From: Pyrinomonadaceae bacterium
GTDB taxonomy: Bacteria > Acidobacteriota > Blastocatellia > Pyrinomonadales > Pyrinomonadaceae
Reading direction: 5' to 3'
DNA length: 64,000 nt
Assembly: GCA_045807865.1 (NCBI GenBank)
Contig: JBJMGP010000060.1
Coordinates: forward strand, 43,991 to 107,990
The notes under the pieces are model-generated. The model ran no database searches. It was not told the origin of the DNA and saw only the letters and a program-made list of their open reading frames with translations. A program made the translations under genes and the position numbers. Of this stretch, positions 7,545 through 62,470 are shown piece by piece. The stretch's first letter is position 1. Every line of letters starts with the position of its first letter.

Positions 7545-8672
7545 TCACAACTTCCTGACGAAGCAGCGGCCGGGGAGCTGCCTCACCAGCTCGCGCAGCT
7601 CAAGCGCCAGCAGCAGTGCGGACAACTCTTGCACGGGGAGGCCGCTCCGTTCGGCCAGCGCGTCGATGTGCGCGGGCTCGTCGGTCGAGATGAGTTTGAG
7701 AACCGCGCTCTCGGGCTCCGAAAGGCCGGCGGGTTCGCGCGGGCGTGTGGGCGAGGGTTCGCCCTTCCCCTTCAACTCAGGCGGGAGAATCGCGGCGGCG
7801 ATGTCGGGTGGGAACTCCGCGACCACGTCCTGCCACTGCTGAATCAGTTTCGCGCCCGCACCCTTGATGAGGTAGTTCGTGCCGAACGAGTTGCGCGAAG
7901 TGATGTTGCCCGGGACGGCGTAGACCTCGCGCCCCTGCTCAAGCGCGAGCCGCGCGGTGATGAGCGAGCCGGAGTTCTCGGAGGCTTCGACGACGATGAC
8001 TCCGTAGCTCAACCCGCTGATGATGCGGTTGCGGTAAGGAAAGTTTTCGGCCACGGGCGGAGTGCCCAGAGGGAACTGCGTGACGAGCGCGCCGCCCTTC
8101 TCAAGAATCTCCGCGGCGAGGCGGCGGTGGTCGCGCGGGTAGACCTCGTCGATCCCCGTCCCGAGCACGGCCGCCGTGCGCCCGCCGGCTTCGAGCGCGC
8201 CGCGATGCGCCGCCGCGTCCACGCCCCGCGCGAGCCCCGAGACGACGGTCACGCCGCGCGCGGCCAGCTCGCGCGCGAGCGACGTGGCCACGTTCTGCCC
8301 GTAGGTCGAGCAGCGGCGAGAGCCGACCACCCCGACGCACGGCGCCTCAAGGCACGCGCGCCACTCGCCCCGCACGTAGAGCGTGACGGGCGGGTCTGGA
8401 ATCTCGCGCAGCAGCGCCGGGTACGCGCCGTCGTCCAAGGCCAGCACGTCCGCGCCTTCGAGGGTGCGCACGCGCTCAAGCTCCACGGCCGCCGCCCCCA
8501 TCCGGTCGCGCAGGGCGATGGACTCGACCGACTCCGGCCGCAGGCGCAGGCGCTCCAACTCGGACCGCAGCGCGCCGAACACGCCCTCGGCCGACCCGAA
8601 CCTCTCCAAGAGACGCGCGGCCGCGCGCGGCCCCACGCCCGGCGTCATGTTCAGCGCGATCCACTCTTTCAT
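7545..8672 (-). CDS. dprA: DNA processing protein DprA/Smf
   Basis: LNMTPGVGPRAAARLLERFGS (SAM-like), Rossmann core GVVGSRRCSTYG...VVSGLARGVDAAAHRGAL, C-terminal winged-helix-like tail. ATG at 8672. Confidence 0.85.
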   Translation of the reverse strand: MKEWIALNMTPGVGPRAAARLLERFGSAEGVFGALRSELERLRLRPESVESIALRDRMGAAAVELERVRTLEGADVLALDDGAYPALLREIPDPPVTLYVRGEWRACLEAPCVGVVGSRRCSTYGQNVATSLARELAARGVTVVSGLARGVDAAAHRGALEAGGRTAAVLGTGIDEVYPRDHRRLAAEILEKGGALVTQFPLGTPPVAENFPYRNRIISGLSYGVIVVEASENSGSLITARLALEQGREVYAVPGNITSRNSFGTNYLIKGAGAKLIQQWQDVVAEFPPDIAAAILPPELKGKGEPSPTRPREPAGLSEPESAVLKLISTDEPAHIDALAERSGLPVQELSALLLALELRELVRQLPGRCFVRKL

Positions 8673-8695: not shown

Positions 8696-8751
8696 GATTC
8701 TTGATTTGAGCGAATGAGGGAAGCGATTTATTCAATCGCAAATCAAAAATC
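8696..8751. repeat. imperfect hairpin of GATTT-rich short tandem units directly 3' of tRNA-Sec
   Basis: gattcttgatttgagcgaatga ... tcaatcgcaaatcaaaaatc are near-complementary arms. It lies between the tRNA 3' end (8765) and the dprA start (8672), so it probably terminates the tRNA transcript. Confidence 0.5.
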
Positions 8752-8764
8752 TAAAATGTGAAGT

Positions 8765-8863
8765 TGGCGGAGGCGTGTGGGAATCGAACCCACCCGCGCC
8801 TGCTCTCACAGGCGCGCTGACGGTTTTGAAGACCGCGCCGCTCACCAGAACGGATGCGCCTCC
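8765..8863 (-). tRNA. selC: tRNA-Sec (anticodon UCA), class II tRNA with long variable arm, encoded CCA
   Basis: Minus-strand read: GGAGGCGCATCCGTTCTGGTGAGCGGCGCGGTCTTCAAAACCGTCAGCGCGCCTGTGAGAGCAGGCGCGGGTGGGTTCGATTCCCACACGCCTCCGCCA (99 nt). The anticodon loop CUUCAAA is identical to that of E. coli selC as I recall it. 7-bp variable-arm stem GCGCCTG/CAGGCGC. T-arm GTGGG-TTCGATT-CCCAC. One extra nucleotide between T-stem and acceptor is compatible with the 8/5 Sec fold (the 8th pair would be C-A). Confidence 0.7.
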
Positions 8864-9016: not shown

Positions 9017-9847
9017 ATGGCAGAAGCGGAAGCTAAGACCGCGGAGGAGTCCGGGCGAGTCCTCGTCCGTTACGAGGCGGCCGAAGGGCTCGCCGTGCTC
9101 ACGCTCGAAGACCCGCCGGCGAACACCTACACGTACGAGATGATGCGGCAGCTCGACGCGGCCGTCCTGCGCGCGCGGATGGACGAGGGCGTCCACGTCA
9201 TCGTCATCACGGGCGCCGGGGAGAAGTTCTTCTGCGCGGGCGCGAACATCTCGATGCTGACGGAGATGACGCCCACCTTCAAATACTACTTCTGCCTCCA
9301 CGCCAACGAGACCTTGAGCCGCCTGGAGCAGACGCCGAAGCTGGTCATCGCGGCCGTCAACGGCCACTGCGTCGGCGGCGGGTTGGAGGTCGCGCTCGCC
9401 GCCGACCTGCGCGTCGCGCGCAAGGGCGCCGGCAAGATGGGGCTGCCCGAGGTGAGCTTAGGCGTGCTGCCGGGCACGGGCGGGACGCAGCGCCTCGCGC
9501 GCCTCGTCGGCAAGTCGAAGGCAATCGAGCTGATGGCCGCAGGCCAACTCTTCGACTTCGAGCGCGGGGCGGAACTCGGCCTCGTCAACCAGATTTTCGA
9601 GGCCGACTCGGCGGCGTCATTTCAAGAACAGGTCATGGCCTACGCACGCCGCTTCACTGCCCCGGGCCGCGCCGCGCTCGCCGTCGGCCGCATCAAGCGC
9701 AGCGTCCAGTCCGGCGCCGAAGTCCCCTTCGAGTACGGCCTCGCCTTAGAGCGCGAACTTCAACAACAGCTCTTCCAATCCGAAGACGCACGCGAGGGCC
9801 TGAGCGCCTACGTCGAGAAGCGCAAGCCAATCTTTAAAGGAAAGTAG
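9017..9847 (+). CDS. enoyl-CoA hydratase/isomerase (crotonase) family
   Basis: 276 aa from the ATG at 9017; the track start at 8777 overlaps the tRNA. VITGAGEKFFCAGANI oxyanion-hole region, AAVNGHCVGGGLEVALAADLRVA. Confidence 0.85.
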   Translation: MAEAEAKTAEESGRVLVRYEAAEGLAVLTLEDPPANTYTYEMMRQLDAAVLRARMDEGVHVIVITGAGEKFFCAGANISMLTEMTPTFKYYFCLHANETLSRLEQTPKLVIAAVNGHCVGGGLEVALAADLRVARKGAGKMGLPEVSLGVLPGTGGTQRLARLVGKSKAIELMAAGQLFDFERGAELGLVNQIFEADSAASFQEQVMAYARRFTAPGRAALAVGRIKRSVQSGAEVPFEYGLALERELQQQLFQSEDAREGLSAYVEKRKPIFKGK

Positions 9848-9924
9848 GTTTTGGGTTTTAGGTGTTAAGTTTTGGATGCACGGCTAATCTTAAGACTTAA
9901 CCCAACACCCAACACCTAAAACCC
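9847..9924. repeat. heptamer-armed hairpin (GGTTTTG/GGTGTTG units)
   Basis: Left arm ggttttgggttttaggtgttaagt, right arm acttaacccaacacccaacacctaaaaccc. The right arm carries extra heptamers. It sits between two co-directional crotonase genes. Confidence 0.7.
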
Positions 9925-9935
9925 AGCGCTCACCT

Positions 9936-10727
9936 ATGTACGAAAACATCAAGGTCGCATTCGACGGCGGGATCGTGACGATCACGCTGAACCGGCCGGA
10001 GAAGCTGAACGCGCTCGCGGGGCACATGCGGCGCGATCTGGCCGAGGCTTTGGAGCACGCGGGGAGCGACCCGGAGGTGCGCGTCGTCATCCTGACGGGG
10101 GCGGGGCGCGCCTTCTGCACCGGGGCGGACGTGGCGCGCATGAGCGAGCTGATGGAGCACGGCGAGGTCGAGGAGTTCCGCCGGCTGCTCGGCGCGGGAA
10201 GGCGCGTGCTGACCGCGATGCGGCAGATGTTGAAGCCGGTGGTCGCGGCCGTCAACGGGCCGGCGTACGGCGCGGGTTTCAACCTCGTGCTCGCGTCGGA
10301 CATCAGGCTCGCGTCCGAGTCGGCGACCTTCAGCCAGTCGTTCGTGAAGGTGGGCCTGCACCCGGACTGGGGCGGCTCGTTCTTCCTGCCGCGGGCGGTG
10401 CCGGCCAACGTCGCGTGCGAGATGTTCTTCCTCGGCGACGCCATCGACGCGCGGCGCGCGCTTGAACTGAACCTGGTCAACCGCGTGGTGCCGGACGCGG
10501 AGCTGGCGGCCGAGACGCGCAAGCTCGCCGAGCGCCTGCGCGCGGCGCCGCAGGCATCGGTCGCCGCGGCCAAGCGCGCCGTCTACATGAGCGAGGAGGA
10601 GAGCCTGGAGCGCATGCTCCAGTATGAGACCGAGGCGCAGCTCCAGTGCTTCCAGTCGCGCGAGGCGCGCGAGCGCGTCCGCGCCTTCCTCGAACGCCGC
10701 TCAAAAGCCGTAAACCCTAAACCGTGA
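9936..10727 (+). CDS. enoyl-CoA hydratase/isomerase (crotonase) family
   Basis: 263 aa. ILTGAGRAFCTGADV, AAVNGPAYGAGFNLVLASDIRLA. The last residues ..AVNPKP and the TGA stop are encoded by the CGTAAAC/CGTGAAC repeat. Confidence 0.85.
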   Translation: MYENIKVAFDGGIVTITLNRPEKLNALAGHMRRDLAEALEHAGSDPEVRVVILTGAGRAFCTGADVARMSELMEHGEVEEFRRLLGAGRRVLTAMRQMLKPVVAAVNGPAYGAGFNLVLASDIRLASESATFSQSFVKVGLHPDWGGSFFLPRAVPANVACEMFFLGDAIDARRALELNLVNRVVPDAELAAETRKLAERLRAAPQASVAAAKRAVYMSEEESLERMLQYETEAQLQCFQSREARERVRAFLERRSKAVNPKP

Positions 10728-10816
10728 CAAGAGAAGAGCGTGAACCGTAAACCGTGAACCGTGACAGGTGAAGACAGGTTCTTCCTCTGGTCACGGTTCA
10801 CGGTTTACGGTTCACG
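10707..10816. repeat. heptamer-armed hairpin, CGTGAAC/CGTAAAC family, plus an upstream partial copy
   Basis: Partial copy gccgtaaaccctaaaccgtgac (10707-10728). Full element cgtgaaccgtaaaccgtgaaccgtgac - aggtgaagacaggttcttcctctg - gtcacggttcacggtttacggttcacg (10739-10816), between convergent genes. Confidence 0.85.
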
Positions 10817-16006: not shown

Positions 16007-16123
16007 AGAAGTCAGAGGTCTGGAGTCAGAAGGCTCCGCTGGCCGAATGTTGATGCTGACGACCCGACAGTTCACTTAAGAATGTTTTCCCTTCTGACTC
16101 CTGACTCCTGACTCCTGACTTCT
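16007..16123. repeat. heptamer-armed hairpin (CTGACTC units) with about 55-nt centre
   Basis: Left arm agaagtcagaggtctggagtcagaagg, right arm ccttctgactcctgactcctgactcctgacttct. The right arm ends 6 nt before the ATG at 16130, and no SD is visible there. Confidence 0.8.
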
Positions 16124-16129
16124 GCTTTT

Positions 16130-17274: not shown

Positions 17275-17859
17275 GTGACGAGAGCCGCTCAAACATTCCG
17301 CGCCCTCCTCCTCTGCCTCGCGTCGCTCGCGTGCGGCGCGTGGCGTCCGCCCGCCTCCGCGGGCCAGACGCCTTACACTCGTGACGAGCCGGCGGCGCGC
17401 GCCACGCTCGAAAGCGTGAAGGGCTTGCGCCGGATGGCGCTGCTCGTGTCGCGCGCGATGGTGGTGGACGCGCGCGACCCGGCGCTCGTCGCCCTGGAGG
17501 ACTACCGGCACGCGCTCGACGGCCACGCGCCGCGGCAGCACGACGCGGCCGCGCGCCGCGTCGCCAACAAGGTCAACAAGTACATACGCAAGTACAGGAG
17601 TGCGACGGCCGTCGAGAGCCTCTCGGACGCCGACCTCGTCCTCGTCTTCAAGGTGACGGGGCAGCGCCGCTCGGCCCTCCCCGACGACCCTTTCATCTGG
17701 GGCAAGCTCTTCGTCATCGCCCTCGGCCCCGACCACACCCCGCGCATCGTCTGGGAATCCCAGGGCGACGACACCAATCCCGAAGACGCCGTCGGCGATT
17801 TCCTCAAGGCGTTCCGGAACGCACGCGGGGAGAAGAAAGGAAGAAGTACTGAGGACTGA
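17275..17859 (+). CDS. hypothetical exported protein
   Basis: GTG at 17275, 7 nt after GAGG. Signal-like TRAAQTFRALLLCLASLACGA. The last codons (..STED) and the stop lie inside the CTGAGGA repeat. The track shows it only as the tail of an artefactual 535-aa ORF. Confidence 0.5.
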   Translation: MTRAAQTFRALLLCLASLACGAWRPPASAGQTPYTRDEPAARATLESVKGLRRMALLVSRAMVVDARDPALVALEDYRHALDGHAPRQHDAAARRVANKVNKYIRKYRSATAVESLSDADLVLVFKVTGQRRSALPDDPFIWGKLFVIALGPDHTPRIVWESQGDDTNPEDAVGDFLKAFRNARGEKKGRSTED

Positions 17860-17917
17860 GGACTGAGTGAAAGGCACGACGCTTCTTATCACTCAGTCCT
17901 CAGTCCTCAGTACTTTT

Positions 17918-19422: not shown

Positions 19423-19489
19423 GGGCCGTTGGCTTTTGGCTGTTAGCTGTTAGCCAGCCAAAGAGCTAACAGCCAACGGCCAACGGCCC
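19423..19489. repeat. heptamer-armed hairpin (GCTGTTA/GCCGTTG units) in a divergent promoter region
   Basis: Left arm gggccgttggcttttggctgttagctgttagc, right arm gctaacagccaacggccaacggccc. It lies between two gene starts (19390 minus, 19575 plus), so it is not in a terminator position. Confidence 0.75.
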
Positions 19490-28657: not shown

Positions 28658-28702
28658 GCCGGCCCGCGAAGGATCACGTTCCTTCGCGGGCCGGCACTTT
28701 TT
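28658..28702 (+). terminator. rho-independent terminator
   Basis: gccggcccgcgaagg - atcacgtt - ccttcgcgggccggc (15-bp perfect stem) followed by acttttt. Confidence 0.8.
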
Positions 28703-30373: not shown

Positions 30374-30482
30374 GCAGTAGGCAGTAGTCAGTAGAAAAGA
30401 TTTCAAGACATGCGGCGCGCCACAGCCTACAGGCCGGGCGCGCCGCTTCGTATTCCTACTGGATACTGTCTAACGTCTACCG
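30374..30482. repeat. composite element: GCAGTAG heptamers flanking a GC-rich 10-bp-stem hairpin
   Basis: gcagtaggcagtagtcagtag (30374-30394). gcggcgcgcc (30412-30421) pairs with ggcgcgccgc (30437-30446). Degenerate complementary heptamers cctactggatactgtctaacgtctaccg. It lies between convergent genes, a terminator position. Confidence 0.7.
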
Positions 30483-33984: not shown

Positions 33985-34140
33985 GTTCCTGCTTCGCTTA
34001 AACGTTCGCGCGGGGTCGGGGCGTGCGTCCCGCTCTGTGTGGAACGACTGAGGCTGTCAAACGGGGCCGAGGCGCGCCGCCCGGCGGGGGCACGCCTACT
34101 TTGATTGAAAACGACCGGGCGGTGGAAAGTCAAGAAGAAC

Positions 34141-34214
34141 GTAAGCCGTAAACCGTGAACCGTGACCAGAAGGAACTGCTTTCCTCTGGTCACGGTTCAC
34201 GGTTTACGGCTTAC
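34141..34214. repeat. heptamer-armed hairpin, CGTGAAC/CGTAAAC family, perfect 26-bp stem
   Basis: gtaagccgtaaaccgtgaaccgtgac (34141-34166) is the exact reverse complement of gtcacggttcacggtttacggcttac (34189-34214). Centre cagaaggaactgctttcctctg. It lies 5 nt beyond the stop of the upstream minus-strand gene. Confidence 0.9.
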
Positions 34215-34219
34215 GGGTT

Positions 34220-36745
<2,526 letters not shown>

Positions 36746-36757
36746 TCGCGCCTCCGA

Positions 36758-36820
36758 AACGATGAACTGCCAGCAGCTTGTCTTTCAGTTCATCGTTCAG
36801 CGTTCCTACTTCATCGTTCA
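36758..36820. repeat. hairpin plus direct repeat of TTCATCGTTCA immediately upstream of the HD-GYP/GGDEF gene SD
   Basis: aacgatgaact (36758-36768) pairs perfectly with agttcatcgtt (36787-36797). A second copy, ttcatcgttca, is at 36810-36820. The SD (reverse complement of cctcc, 36751-36755) is 2 nt from the stem. Confidence 0.6.
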
Positions 36821-37248: not shown

Positions 37249-37293
37249 ATATAAAAGCCGTGAGCGTGGGCAGGGATGCCCGCGCTCACGGCT
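37249..37293 (-). terminator. rho-independent terminator of the 37311-38141 gene
   Basis: On the minus strand: agccgtgagcgcg - loop - cgctcacggct followed by tttatat. Confidence 0.6.
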
Positions 37294-37310
37294 TGCTCCC
37301 GACCTGCTGG

Positions 37311-40257: not shown

Positions 40258-40917
40258 ATGGTGGCCAAGGGCTACGAGATCACGAACATCGTCGAGGCGC
40301 TGCGGGTCGGGAAGGGCCTGGCGGCGAGTGACTTCGACGACGGGGCGTGGAGGCGTGCGCGCGCGGCGCACATCGAGCGCTACTGGTCGGGCGAGGACGC
40401 GCCGCAAGGGCGCCGGGCCGAGGCGCGCGTGGCGTGGGACGCCCGAGGCTTCACCGTGCGCTTCGACTGTCGGCAGGAGGAGCCGCTCGTCGTGTCGAGT
40501 GCGCCGCGGCTCGAAGGCAAGACGATGCAGTTGTGGGATCGCGACGTGTGCGAGGTCTTCATCACGCCCGAGACCGAGCGCATCCAGCACTACTACGAGT
40601 TCGAGGTGGCCCCGACGGGCGAGTGGATCGACCTCGCGCTCACGGTCACGAAGGACGGGCGCGACACCCAATGGGACTTTCGCTCGGGCTTGACGGCCGC
40701 CGCGCGCGTCCGCCCCGGCTCGGTCACCTCTTCCCTGCGCGTCCCCTGGGAGGCGTTCGGTCGCGCGCCGCGCGCGGGCGAACGGTGGCGCTGCAACCTC
40801 TTCCGCTGCGTCGGCCAAGACCCCACCCGCGGCTACCTCGCCTGGCAGCCCACACACACACCCGAGCCCGCCTTCCACGTCCCCGAAAAGTTTGGGTGGA
40901 TAGTTTTTAAACCGTGA
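40258..40917 (+). CDS. carbohydrate-binding family 9-like (DOMON-like) protein
   Basis: 219 aa from the ATG at 40258 (the track's TTG at 40246 abuts the SD). ARVAWDARGFTVRFDC...WDRDVCEVFITP...YYEFEVAPTGEWIDL. The last codons ..FKP and the stop lie in the CGTGAAC repeat. Confidence 0.6.
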   Translation: MVAKGYEITNIVEALRVGKGLAASDFDDGAWRRARAAHIERYWSGEDAPQGRRAEARVAWDARGFTVRFDCRQEEPLVVSSAPRLEGKTMQLWDRDVCEVFITPETERIQHYYEFEVAPTGEWIDLALTVTKDGRDTQWDFRSGLTAAARVRPGSVTSSLRVPWEAFGRAPRAGERWRCNLFRCVGQDPTRGYLAWQPTHTPEPAFHVPEKFGWIVFKP

Positions 40918-40969
40918 ACCGTGACCAGAGAAAGTAGGCTCTTCTTCTGGTCACGGTTTACGGTTTACG
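40909..40969. repeat. heptamer-armed hairpin, CGTGAAC/CGTAAAC family, overlapping both convergent gene ends
   Basis: aaaccgtgaaccgtgac - cagagaaagtaggctcttcttctg - gtcacggtttacggtttacg. The plus-strand stop (40915-40917) and the minus-strand stop (40951-40953) are both inside the arms. Confidence 0.9.
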
Positions 40970-44420: not shown

Positions 44421-44471
44421 AAAGAGAACGGCTGACGGCGAGTGGTGCGTACCGTCCACTCACCGTCAGCC
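44421..44471 (-). terminator. hairpin downstream of the OPT transporter gene
   Basis: ggctgacggcgagtgg (44430-44445) pairs with ccactcaccgtcagcc (44456-44471) with one mismatch. Weak U-tract on the minus strand. Confidence 0.5.
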
Positions 44472-44514
44472 ATTGTTCCACCCGCGCGCGCGCGGGGTCA
44501 AGCGAGCTTCCGCG

Positions 44515-47157: not shown

Positions 47158-47233
47158 GAGCCGTCAACCGTCAACCGTCAACCGTGACAAGAAGGTCTTG
47201 CCTTATCTTGTCACGGTTGACGGTTGACGGCTC
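47158..47233. repeat. heptamer-armed hairpin, CGTCAAC variant of the CGTGAAC family
   Basis: gagccgtcaaccgtcaaccgtcaaccgtgac - aagaaggtcttgccttatcttg - gtcacggttgacggttgacggctc. Three heptamers on the left arm, two on the right. It directly follows the kinase stop (47235). Confidence 0.9.
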
Positions 47234-49669: not shown

Positions 49670-49706
49670 TGCGAAGAGCGGGAAGCAATCGCCGCGTCAG
49701 CGGCGG

Positions 49707-49734
49707 CCTACTGCCATCTGCCTCCTGCCTACTC
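49707..49734. repeat. one-armed run of CTGCCTA-type heptamers
   Basis: cctactgccatctgcctcctgcctactc between the vWA stop and the PP2C start. Same unit (reverse complement GCAGTAG) as at 30374. No complementary arm seen. Confidence 0.5.
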
Positions 49735-50619: not shown

Positions 50620-50688
50620 GAAGCTGTTAGCTGTTGGCTTTGAGCTTCATGCCTGGCTCACAGCTCAGAGCTGACGGCCAACAGCTTC
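50620..50688. repeat. heptamer-armed hairpin (GCTGTTA/GCTGTTG units) inside the operon
   Basis: gaagctgttagctgttggc ... gccaacagcttc with an inner gagct/agctc stem. Preceded by GATAAGT-GATGGGT-GATAAGA heptamers (50601-50621). Confidence 0.7.
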
Positions 50689-58047: not shown

Positions 58048-58123
58048 GGTGTCGGGTGATGGGTTCTGGTTGTTAGGTAGAAGCGGGCTCTGATCCATCA
58101 CCTGGAACCCATCACCCGACACC
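58048..58123. repeat. hairpin with perfect 19-bp stem (GGGTGAT-type units) inside the BMC operon
   Basis: ggtgtcgggtgatgggttc (58048-58066) is the exact reverse complement of gaacccatcacccgacacc (58105-58123). It sits between the ACT gene stop and the zinc-ribbon gene start. Confidence 0.85.
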
Positions 58124-58568: not shown

Positions 58569-58579
58569 CCTGTGTACGG

Positions 58580-58906: not shown

Positions 58907-58989
58907 AAAGACCGTGAACCGTGAACCGTAAGCCGTGACGAGAGGGAAGACAGTTTTTATCTTGTCACGGTTTACGGTTCACGGTCTTT
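58907..58989. repeat. heptamer-armed hairpin, CGTGAAC/CGTAAGC family, filling the whole AldDH-to-BMC-P intergenic space
   Basis: aaagaccgtgaaccgtgaaccgtaagccgtgac - gagagggaagacagtttttatcttg - gtcacggtttacggttcacggtcttt. It abuts the BMC-P ATG (58904-58906) and overlaps the AldDH stop (58989-58991). Confidence 0.9.
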
Positions 58990-60854: not shown

Positions 60855-60931
60855 CGTGAACCGTGAACCGTAAATCGTGACCAGTGAAAAGGCAGTCCTT
60901 TCCCGTCACGGTTTACGGTTCACGGTTTACG
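60855..60931. repeat. heptamer-armed hairpin, CGTGAAC/CGTAAAC family
   Basis: cgtgaaccgtgaaccgtaaatcgtgac - cagtgaaaaggcagtcctttccc - gtcacggtttacggttcacggtttacg. The TAA stop of the upstream BMC-H gene (60927-60929) lies inside the right arm. Confidence 0.9.
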
Positions 60932-62393: not shown

Positions 62394-62410
62394 TGTCTCT
62401 TCAATCGAAA

Positions 62411-62470
62411 GGCCCGCACCCCGAAGCCCCCCTCGCGGGAGAGTTTCGGGGTGCGGGCCTCGAACTTTTT
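62411..62470 (+). terminator. rho-independent terminator of rodZ
   Basis: ggcccgcaccccgaa (62411-62425) pairs with ttcggggtgcgggcc (62445-62459), a 15-bp stem, followed by tcgaacttttt. Confidence 0.75.

Follow-up and report, generated by a model that had tools for sequence, protein, structure and literature searches.

Intergenic hairpins with tandem heptamer arms in a Pyrinomonadaceae genome, probable gene-less relatives of PF05635 cassettes

The genome of a Pyrinomonadaceae bacterium (Acidobacteriota, class Blastocatellia; assembly GCA_045807865.1) carries hundreds of intergenic hairpins whose arms are tandem repeats of a 7-nt unit. The stretch under study, called the window here, comprises 64,000 nt (C60:43991-107990, contig JBJMGP010000060.1) of a draft assembly of 7.14 Mb in 259 contigs with 66% GC, and an original prediction made from its letters alone had proposed a dispersed family of such hairpins. 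[quoted passage not shown] They differ from STRRs as published in the inverted pairs as a rule, the anchoring at stop codons, the fixed polarity and the tie to PF05635 cassettes. In the plan that we propose, three to five 7-nt units would lead into an inner stem and its loop, and the units would then return as their complement.

The architecture is best seen in the exemplar of the family (hairpins are listed without strand here and below) and the gene beside it:
34141 to 34214: exemplar hairpin, CGTRAAC family, GTGAC core, 6 nt 3' of the HD-GYP/GGDEF stop codon.
34220 to 36745, minus strand: HD-GYP/GGDEF gene.

The exemplar reads CGTAAGC CGTAAAC CGTGAAC CGTGAC-CAGAAGGAA-ctgc-TTTCCTCTG up to its 3' arm, and that arm, GTCACG GTTCACG GTTTACG GCTTACG, is the exact complement of the 5' arm. 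The perfect 26-bp stem that had been predicted is present and extends to about 36 bp, with a minimum free energy (MFE) of -67.9 kcal/mol and z = -15. Orthologous hairpins in seven species, in which the neighbouring protein is 82-94% identical, keep a 30-bp helix with 94.3% of cells paired. At 13 of the 30 pairs the changes are compensatory, with both sides altered; GTGAC/GTCAC, for instance, becomes GCGAC/GTCGC or GTGGC/GCCAC. The observed value was never attained in 500 shuffles, and slid registers are 36-47% paired. The suggestion that structure is kept rather than sequence is borne out.

A hairpin follows the GGDEF gene in most of about 20 inspected Pyrinomonadaceae loci, with a conserved promoter-like motif after it, and orthologues of the HD-GYP/GGDEF gene that are 91-94% identical occur in metagenome-assembled genomes named Pyrinomonadaceae. 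In the window the motif is TTGACT-N18-TTCAAT on the minus strand (34104-34133), directly 3' of the exemplar, within a block TTCTTGACTTTCC...CGTTTTCAATC that is conserved in about 10 inspected Pyrinomonadaceae loci. It has the appearance of a promoter of the downstream response-regulator/histidine-kinase gene.

The same design recurs throughout the genome. When adjacent arrays of a given period were paired genome-wide, with block-shuffled genomes as control, 352 inverted period-7 pairs were obtained, or 375 with better pairing, against 0-1 in the shuffled genomes and against 15 direct pairs. Intergenic period-7 arrays numbered 1227 compared with 113-125 in shuffles, so the lack of enrichment over shuffled sequence that might have undone the original prediction is replaced by an approximately 10-fold intergenic excess; within genes there is no excess (784 versus about 920). 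The 1227 arrays correspond to some 500-600 elements, and among spacers of at least 40 nt, 24% of the tandem, 27% of the convergent and 14% of the divergent ones are occupied. When inverted repeats whose stems reach 14 bp or more are sorted by arm period, seven leads by a wide margin with 220 cases, compared with 68 of period 6 and 50 of period 8. The arm pattern CGTVAAC...CGTGAC alone has 256 matches in this genome, and its reversed control has none.

Two parts of the original prediction need revision. Instead of about seven kinds of unit there are 64 canonical families, together with octamer and pentamer-like ones, and the unit does not vary freely from locus to locus: the loci are members of dispersed sequence families whose copies are 80-96% identical, inner stems, cores and loops included. 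CGTRAAC is the largest family (about 170 loci), followed by CAGTAGN/GGCAGTA (about 80) and then by AAAGGCA, GATGAAT, CTGACTC, GCTGTTA, ACTGAGG and GGGTGTY. The CAGTAGN-armed elements form sub-families with conserved cores, one of which is about 55 nt long and non-palindromic, while another consists of a GC-rich stem followed by thymines. The architecture extends to arms of other periods, namely those of an octamer family, GAGACACR, at about 69 intergenic loci and of a GC-rich pentamer-like family at about 15. Octamer hairpins outside the window include C9:50906-50983 and C33:14452-14537, and the GAGACACR family is also found in relatives (L045).

An average element is 84 nt long and, as had been noted from the window, less GC-rich than its surroundings (52%, where intergenic DNA has 58% and the genome as a whole 66%); it folds at about -50 kcal/mol with about 31 Watson-Crick pairs. 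Most arms have three or four units, and unequal arms are indeed common, with 116 pairs of 3/4 or 4/3 compared with 99 of 3/3 and 75 of 4/4. Terminal inverted repeats around a short non-coding interior give the elements the organisation of a MITE, a miniature transposable element bounded by inverted repeats. They are not copies of one ordinary MITE.

The claim that the arms are complementary within each locus holds when it is set against a between-locus control. In the CGTGAC-core family (155 loci), 19% of loci have two arms that complement each other without a mismatch over 21 nt, and the figure for arms combined from different loci is 1.1%. Selection on the RNA of one strand was considered as the cause and rejected, as neither the asymmetry of G-U against A-C pairs nor the folding energies of sense and antisense strands gave a signal (558 G-U pairs on the sense and 527 on the antisense strand, with equal energies). 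Since pairing is kept without strand asymmetry, complementarity appears to be maintained on the duplex and not on a single transcript, and this symmetry could reflect maintenance at the DNA level, either by template-switching at the palindrome or by selection on a hairpin that can be read on both strands. Arm length varies by whole 7-nt units, which would be expected if it changes through 7-nt slippage. One extreme element in another genus of the family (L151:18199-18539, genome G206) has about 35-40 tandem CAGTGAG units in one arm and about 7 in the other, and suggests that arm length can run away in some lineages.

The position of the elements relative to genes is tightly constrained on one side. 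Where neighbouring genes share a strand, the median distance from the upstream stop codon to the start of the element is 3 nt (10th-90th percentile -14 to +19), and the distance to the next start is looser (median 22 nt). Density per kb of spacer is 0.39 in tandem, 0.47 in convergent and 0.08 in divergent spacers, the last being about 5-fold rarer. Of 375 elements, 342 have their purine-rich arm on the 5' side, as do 54 of 62 families, and this polarity is true from either strand because the elements are palindromic. Because a 7-nt period runs through every reading frame in turn, the 5' arm has stop codons in all three frames for 62% of elements and in two or more for 88%, compared with 1.7% of control intergenic 31-mers having them in all three. 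The units themselves are also rich in stops, with a stop triplet in the left-arm unit of 39 of the 64 families against 28 expected from shuffled units.

On the downstream side, 69 genes begin no more than 8 nt past a hairpin, and a Shine-Dalgarno-like motif is present in 1.4% of them, compared with 44% of genes genome-wide. This near-absence, seen for example at window 58907-58988, raises the question of how such genes are translated. Where a copy fills its spacer, the base of the stem may place the preceding stop codon beside the following start codon, and this juxtaposition would permit re-initiation without a Shine-Dalgarno sequence. Thymine runs 3' of the stems are only mildly enriched, and many elements directly abut a Shine-Dalgarno sequence or an ATG.

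Comparison of orthologous spacers, which the original prediction had recommended, revealed sites gained, lost and swapped between congeneric species. The four spacers of a bacterial microcompartment (BMC) operon (window 57.4-61.4 kb) were compared in 16 congeners, and three of them carry an element here:
58048 to 58122: GGGTGWY-family hairpin, z -5.9; in sister species this spacer carries other unit families.
58569 to 58579: empty 11-nt spacer, a presence/absence site, filled in 11 of the 15 compared sister species.
58907 to 58985: CGTGAAC-family hairpin that occupies the entire spacer, from the upstream stop codon to the downstream ATG.
60855 to 60931: CGTGAAC-family hairpin between a stop codon and the next Shine-Dalgarno sequence, z -8.8.

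The flanks of these spacers are 80-98% identical, and yet the spacers hold different unit families or nothing. The spacer that has 11 nt here has 22-25 nt in three species and a 67-113-nt insert in eleven, in most cases a heptamer-armed hairpin. Even the stop codon differs according to the element present (TGA for GTGATAA, TAG for TAGTGAA or GTAGACA, TCG-TAA for CGTAAAC), and a 36-nt irregular arm at window 36783-36818 is identical to one in the BMC operon spacer of the congener G007, a non-orthologous site. Within the genus, genomes have anywhere between 0 and 408 matches to the CGTVAAC-CGTGAC arm (26 in the nearest relative), and in 300 other genomes of the phylum the pattern is all but missing. 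Compared across congeners, the elements behave like mobile DNA, with families that expand, vanish and replace one another.

Beyond the genus, the survey of relatives drew on roughly 100 kb from each genome. Inverted period-7 pairs were present in the majority of the family's other genera (1-6 per sample), in three other families of the class (3-7) and in one further Acidobacteriota family (4 per 83 kb), and the inverted array pairs of the surveyed relatives were almost exclusively of period 7. No inverted pairs were found in the samples from one of the family's genera, from three further class-level families and from three further genomes of the phylum, nor in 24 loci from outside Pyrinomonadaceae/Blastocatellia, mostly from other phyla. 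Short-read contigs from soil break at the elements, and soil DNA contigs, being short and broken at hairpins, gave no reliable copy-number polymorphism.

A clue to the origin of the hairpins comes from PF05635, the family named for the 23S rRNA intervening-sequence protein. Of 41 relatives, 29 have it, and so do 15 of the 24 congeners among them. One class-level family lacks it in its three genomes, of which the one sampled had no hairpins. We fetched 20 of these genes with their flanks from relatives and mapped 17 cassettes onto the studied genome. Inverted heptamer arrays bracket 18 of the 20 genes, and their units belong to the families of the solo hairpins: CGTGAAC, GTGATAA, TGGTAAA, GGCAGTA, GAGTGAC, CTGGAGT, GCTATTA and GGGTGCT. 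The enclosed gene codes for about 125 aa; the one in G007 matches TIGR02436, a four-helix-bundle protein, and weakly the Avd model of diversity-generating retroelements (DGR). The cassette of G020 has the same arms, GTGAC core and inner stem as solo hairpins of the studied genome, to which its ends are 97% identical over 37 nt and 100% over 31 nt, and the element at window 58907 matches at 100% over 31 nt. Five distinct cassette sites are empty in the studied genome, with 0-8 nt between the flanks, and two further sites are occupied here by a solo hairpin of another family. The shared arms, cores and inner stems, together with the empty sites, mean that the solo hairpins are best read as gene-less versions of the cassettes.

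All examined copies of the cassette lie between protein-coding genes. In G007 a second complete hairpin of the GGCAGTA type lies between the PF05635 gene and the outer right arm (L216:1133-1261), and another cassette, L220, has an entire solo hairpin where a simple left arm is expected; this nesting suggests that elements insert into, or beside, each other. Within the studied genome, distant inverted arrays that enclose a recurring ORF or a transposase were not found, only neighbouring elements that flank ordinary genes. Our search of the literature turned up neither a link between heptamer repeats and PF05635 nor an account of such repeats from Acidobacteria.

Taken together, the solo hairpins would be cassettes without their gene for a PF05635/TIGR02436 four-helix-bundle protein of about 125 aa, distantly Avd-like, that spread by a copy-and-paste process and persist right after stop codons, where a long hairpin probably does least harm. 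The transcript would fold into a stem of about 30 bp, forming a structure at the 3' end or between cistrons that could block exonucleases, terminate part of the transcription or be cut by RNase III. In eukaryotes, Foldback (FB) transposons offer a parallel, as they too have terminal inverted repeats of short tandem repeats, unequal and variable arms, and many copies without a coding interior. However, they are far larger and have a known transposase family, so the likeness is an analogy only.

Several observations weigh against this interpretation. PF05635 itself was not found in the studied genome by a six-frame HMM search and tblastn (all tblastn matches came from one query ORF reading into its own repeat arm and were discarded as spurious), and to our knowledge the family has no catalytic activity. 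No known transposase is associated with the elements, no target-site duplication was seen at the five sites that could be compared empty and filled, and identical copies are missing within the studied genome (the best are 96% identical). Movement is deduced from comparison, and no event was observed directly. The congeners G011 and G015 are rich in hairpins and have no PF05635, and two class-level genomes, G025 and G028, have PF05635 and no hairpins in samples of 70-74 kb; the gene may therefore be cargo and not driver. The RNA-level roles are inferred throughout, and the weak enrichment of U-tracts makes classical termination doubtful. Gene positions, on which the stop-codon distances depend, come from an approximate codon-model gene caller (5055 genes, 83% coding). 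Finally, the length of the 7-nt unit is not accounted for.

Within the window, period-7 arrays were detected with Tandem Repeats Finder (TRF) and folds were scored by MFE and z. The original prediction had assigned one architecture to 17 coordinates, and this held for 13 of them, which are strong hairpins with period-7 arms and z of -5 to -16 (9847, 10739, 16007, 17845, 19423, 30374, 34141, 40909, 47158, 50620, 58048, 58907 and 60855). The remaining four fall short, one being weak (8696), one decayed (36758) and two single arms (10707 and 49707), of which 49707 had correctly been described as one arm only. The elements outside the BMC operon, other than the exemplar, are:
8696 to 8757: weak AT-rich hairpin with period-7 arms ATTTCTG.../...AAAATCT, between tRNA-Sec and the gene at 7545-8672; MFE -17.2, z -3.3, stem 17, period-7 score 0.6.
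9847 to 9925: GGGTTTT/GGTGTTR-family hairpin between two same-strand genes, z -5.2; TRF places its period-7 arrays at 9845-9873 and 9900-9925.
10707 to 10731: solitary left-arm remnant, CGTAAAC CCTAAAC CGTGAC, that adjoins the 10739 element and alone has no fold.
10739 to 10816: CGTGAAC-family hairpin between convergent genes, MFE -65.7, z -13.2.
16007 to 16124: GTCAGAR/CTGACTC-family hairpin with a long interior, between same-strand genes, z -5.0; it ends 6 nt 5' of the following start codon.
17845 to 17914: ACTGAGG-family hairpin between convergent genes, MFE -58.7, z -16.1.
19423 to 19489: GCTGTTR-family hairpin between divergent gene starts, a rare context, z -8.0.
30374 to 30470: GCAGTAG-family hairpin, z -5.2, with a GC-rich stem (GCGGCGCGCC...GGCGCGCCGC) of the recurrent core called cluster 2 in its interior.
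36758 to 36820: decayed GATGAAC-family element, a 12-bp stem with extra 3' units.
40909 to 40969: CGTGAAC-family hairpin between convergent genes that both end within it, z -10.
47158 to 47232: CGTCAAC-variant hairpin with unequal arms (about 4 versus 3 units), z -10.5.
49706 to 49733: lone period-7 arm, GCCTACT-like, with its partner absent.
50620 to 50680: GCTGTTR-family hairpin between same-strand genes, z -6.9.

Period-7 arms occur in 14 of the 21 intergenic inverted repeats of the window with a stem of at least 14 bp, and the rest are ordinary GC-rich hairpins. Intergenic hairpins of this latter kind (28658-28695, 37255-37294, 44425-44476 and 62410-62460) suggest that the genome also employs conventional terminator-like stems. 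At Rfam gathering scores the only match in the window is the selenocysteine tRNA gene on the minus strand (8769-8863; tRNA-Sec, 74.5 bits), with the weak 8696 hairpin just 3' of it, and the hairpins themselves are unmatched.

The likeness to STRRs, already pointed out in the original prediction, is apt. In filamentous cyanobacteria these 7-bp repeats are reported to form hairpins between genes, such as hupS and hupL, and their function is described as unknown, with transcript stability or translational coupling as suggested roles (PMC2670836). STRRs and the elements described here are both tandem 7-nt units, intergenic, present at many loci and divided into several unit families, and the Nostoc intergenic repeat ccactgactactgac (PMC2408588) is the complement of (GTCAGTA)n, which is the (CAGTAGT)n unit found here. 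The hosts differ, being cyanobacteria in one case and, in the other, Acidobacteriota of the class Blastocatellia and at least one other family of the phylum, and the predominance of inverted over direct pairs (352 versus 15) is unlike STRRs as published. We found no published statement for STRRs of stop-codon anchoring, of purine-5'/pyrimidine-3' polarity or of a tie to PF05635. The named cyanobacterial units are CCCCAGT, TTGGTCA and CAACAGT, none of which is among the 64 families here. STRRs have reportedly been known since 1990 and used as fingerprinting targets; we know of no account of what makes them or what they do.

A second point of comparison is the ORF-bearing intervening sequence (IVS) of 23S rRNA in Coxiella and Leptospira, in which a small PF05635/S23p gene sits in the loop of a long stem with inverted flanks. 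Excision by RNase III defines rRNA intervening sequences. These IVSs, like the PF05635 cassettes, are discrete insertions that are present or absent between relatives, whereas the copies of the studied genome and its relatives lie between protein-coding genes and those of the window are gene-less. It is possible, and we offer it tentatively, that heptamer hairpins, cyanobacterial STRRs and ORF-bearing IVSs constitute one widespread class of selfish cassette, in which the Avd-like PF05635 protein helps to copy or insert the hairpin, the 7-nt period is the footprint of that process and solo hairpins are MITE-like relics. The footprint could then stem from a partner polymerase or reverse transcriptase that slips stepwise on its template, or from protein binding in 7-nt steps.

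The hairpins might instead be host-built terminators or 3'-end stabilisers that arose in place, through 7-mer slippage and fold-back copying, and were selected, their resemblance to each other being convergence. The conserved position after the GGDEF gene in most of the about 20 loci, the compensatory changes that preserve the helix and the bias to 3' gene ends fit this view, as does the first unit, which at several sites overlaps and resembles the native Lys-stop (AAGTGA versus AAGTGAT or AAGTGAC). However, convergence would not yield inner stems, loops and about 55-nt non-palindromic cores that are common to loci and species. Nor does this view agree well with whole families that are missing in some congeners and number hundreds in others, with working spacers that have no hairpin (window 58569-58579 and the empty cassette sites), with G-U usage that lacks strand asymmetry, or with stems of about 30 bp and about -50 kcal/mol, which go far beyond the need of a terminator and are followed by weak U-tracts. 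We therefore consider a host-built origin unlikely.

Repetitive extragenic palindromic (REP) sequences and REPINs share with the elements a high-copy, extragenic, palindromic habit, with most copies downstream of genes and variation between strains, and are thought to be non-autonomous mobile DNA (PMC3733652, PMC2817692). A classical system of this kind would be moved by a REP-associated tyrosine transposase (RAYT), an IS200-like Y1 transposase, that reads a hairpin and a GTAG or CGTC tag in each unit. The two tags of the REP superfamilies do occur, GTAG in CAGTAGN units and CGTC in CGTCAAC units (PMC3733652), and four Y1_Tnp (IS200/RAYT-like) matches are encoded in the genome. But most of the 64 families have neither tag, and REPs lack the tandem-repeat arms, the stems of about 30 bp and the dozens of families seen here. 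The search for a RAYT partner, proposed with the original prediction, yielded no cognate one: heptamer arrays are absent within 3 kb of all four matches, and the full-length form in relatives bears the four-helix-bundle PF05635 gene and not a Y1 transposase. The one intact RAYT-like gene with flanking repeats (C161:5403-5747) has a different palindrome family on both sides. This region (C161:5100-6050, outside the window), with its GC-rich pentamer-like palindromes (GCCGCGTCGCGTCAGCGACGC...) that recur at about 15 other loci, is an ordinary REP-RAYT unit that stands apart from the heptamer families. A role for RAYT in the spread of the hairpins thus seems quite improbable.

Heptamer direct repeats of the unit TAACTGA have been described in Beggiatoaceae, some cyanobacteria and Bacteroidetes (MacGregor 2015, PMC4679880). 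They are likewise intergenic and tandem (2-6 copies), patchy in their phylogenetic distribution and built of a unit containing stop codons that the 7-nt period puts in every frame. They have a single unit, are nearly always direct (one inverted set in 170) and lie mostly just upstream of starts, whereas the elements here have many units, are inverted and lie just downstream of stops. That paper cites CspB, a cold-shock protein, as binding heptamer direct repeats with one protein per heptamer. The heptamer arrays here could likewise serve a protein that follows single-stranded nucleic acid in steps of 7 nt, with the inversion as a secondary feature; candidate readers would be a cold-shock-type OB fold, a HutP-like ring on UAG-N4 or PF05635 itself. 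The form UAG-N4 recurs in the CAGTAGN units. Also in favour is a period held strictly at 7 in several of the class's families, where periods of 5, 6, 8 and 9 are almost absent. Against such a reader stand the 64 unrelated unit sequences, which argue against sequence-specific reading, the rarity of direct pairs, and arms so nearly perfectly complementary that they should be double-stranded most of the time, and we give this explanation very little credence.

Three further ideas were set aside. The hairpins do not look like intrinsic terminators of the short-stem and U-tract type, given stems of about 31 Watson-Crick pairs and about -50 kcal/mol with only mild U-tracts, nor, judged by eye, like integron attC sites, as the units are unlike RYYYAAC/GTTRRRY and the elements lie in conserved operons. 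An arm unit copied from the target is hinted at by two or three of the five empty sites (AAGTGA, CGTGTGA), a likeness that is inseparable from elements simply having the stop codon in common.

The reading of the hairpins as gene-less PF05635 cassettes of the STRR type gives heptamer repeats a partner that can be tested. Dozens of congeneric genomes in which the same spacers are empty, differently filled or occupied by a full cassette provide a comparative system, where gain, loss and replacement can be read directly. For the bacteria themselves the elements matter in several ways, since they supply stop codons and C-terminal residues, remove the Shine-Dalgarno sequence from about 70 genes, fill a quarter of gene-end spacers and break short-read assemblies, and they are therefore relevant to annotation and operon expression in a major soil phylum.

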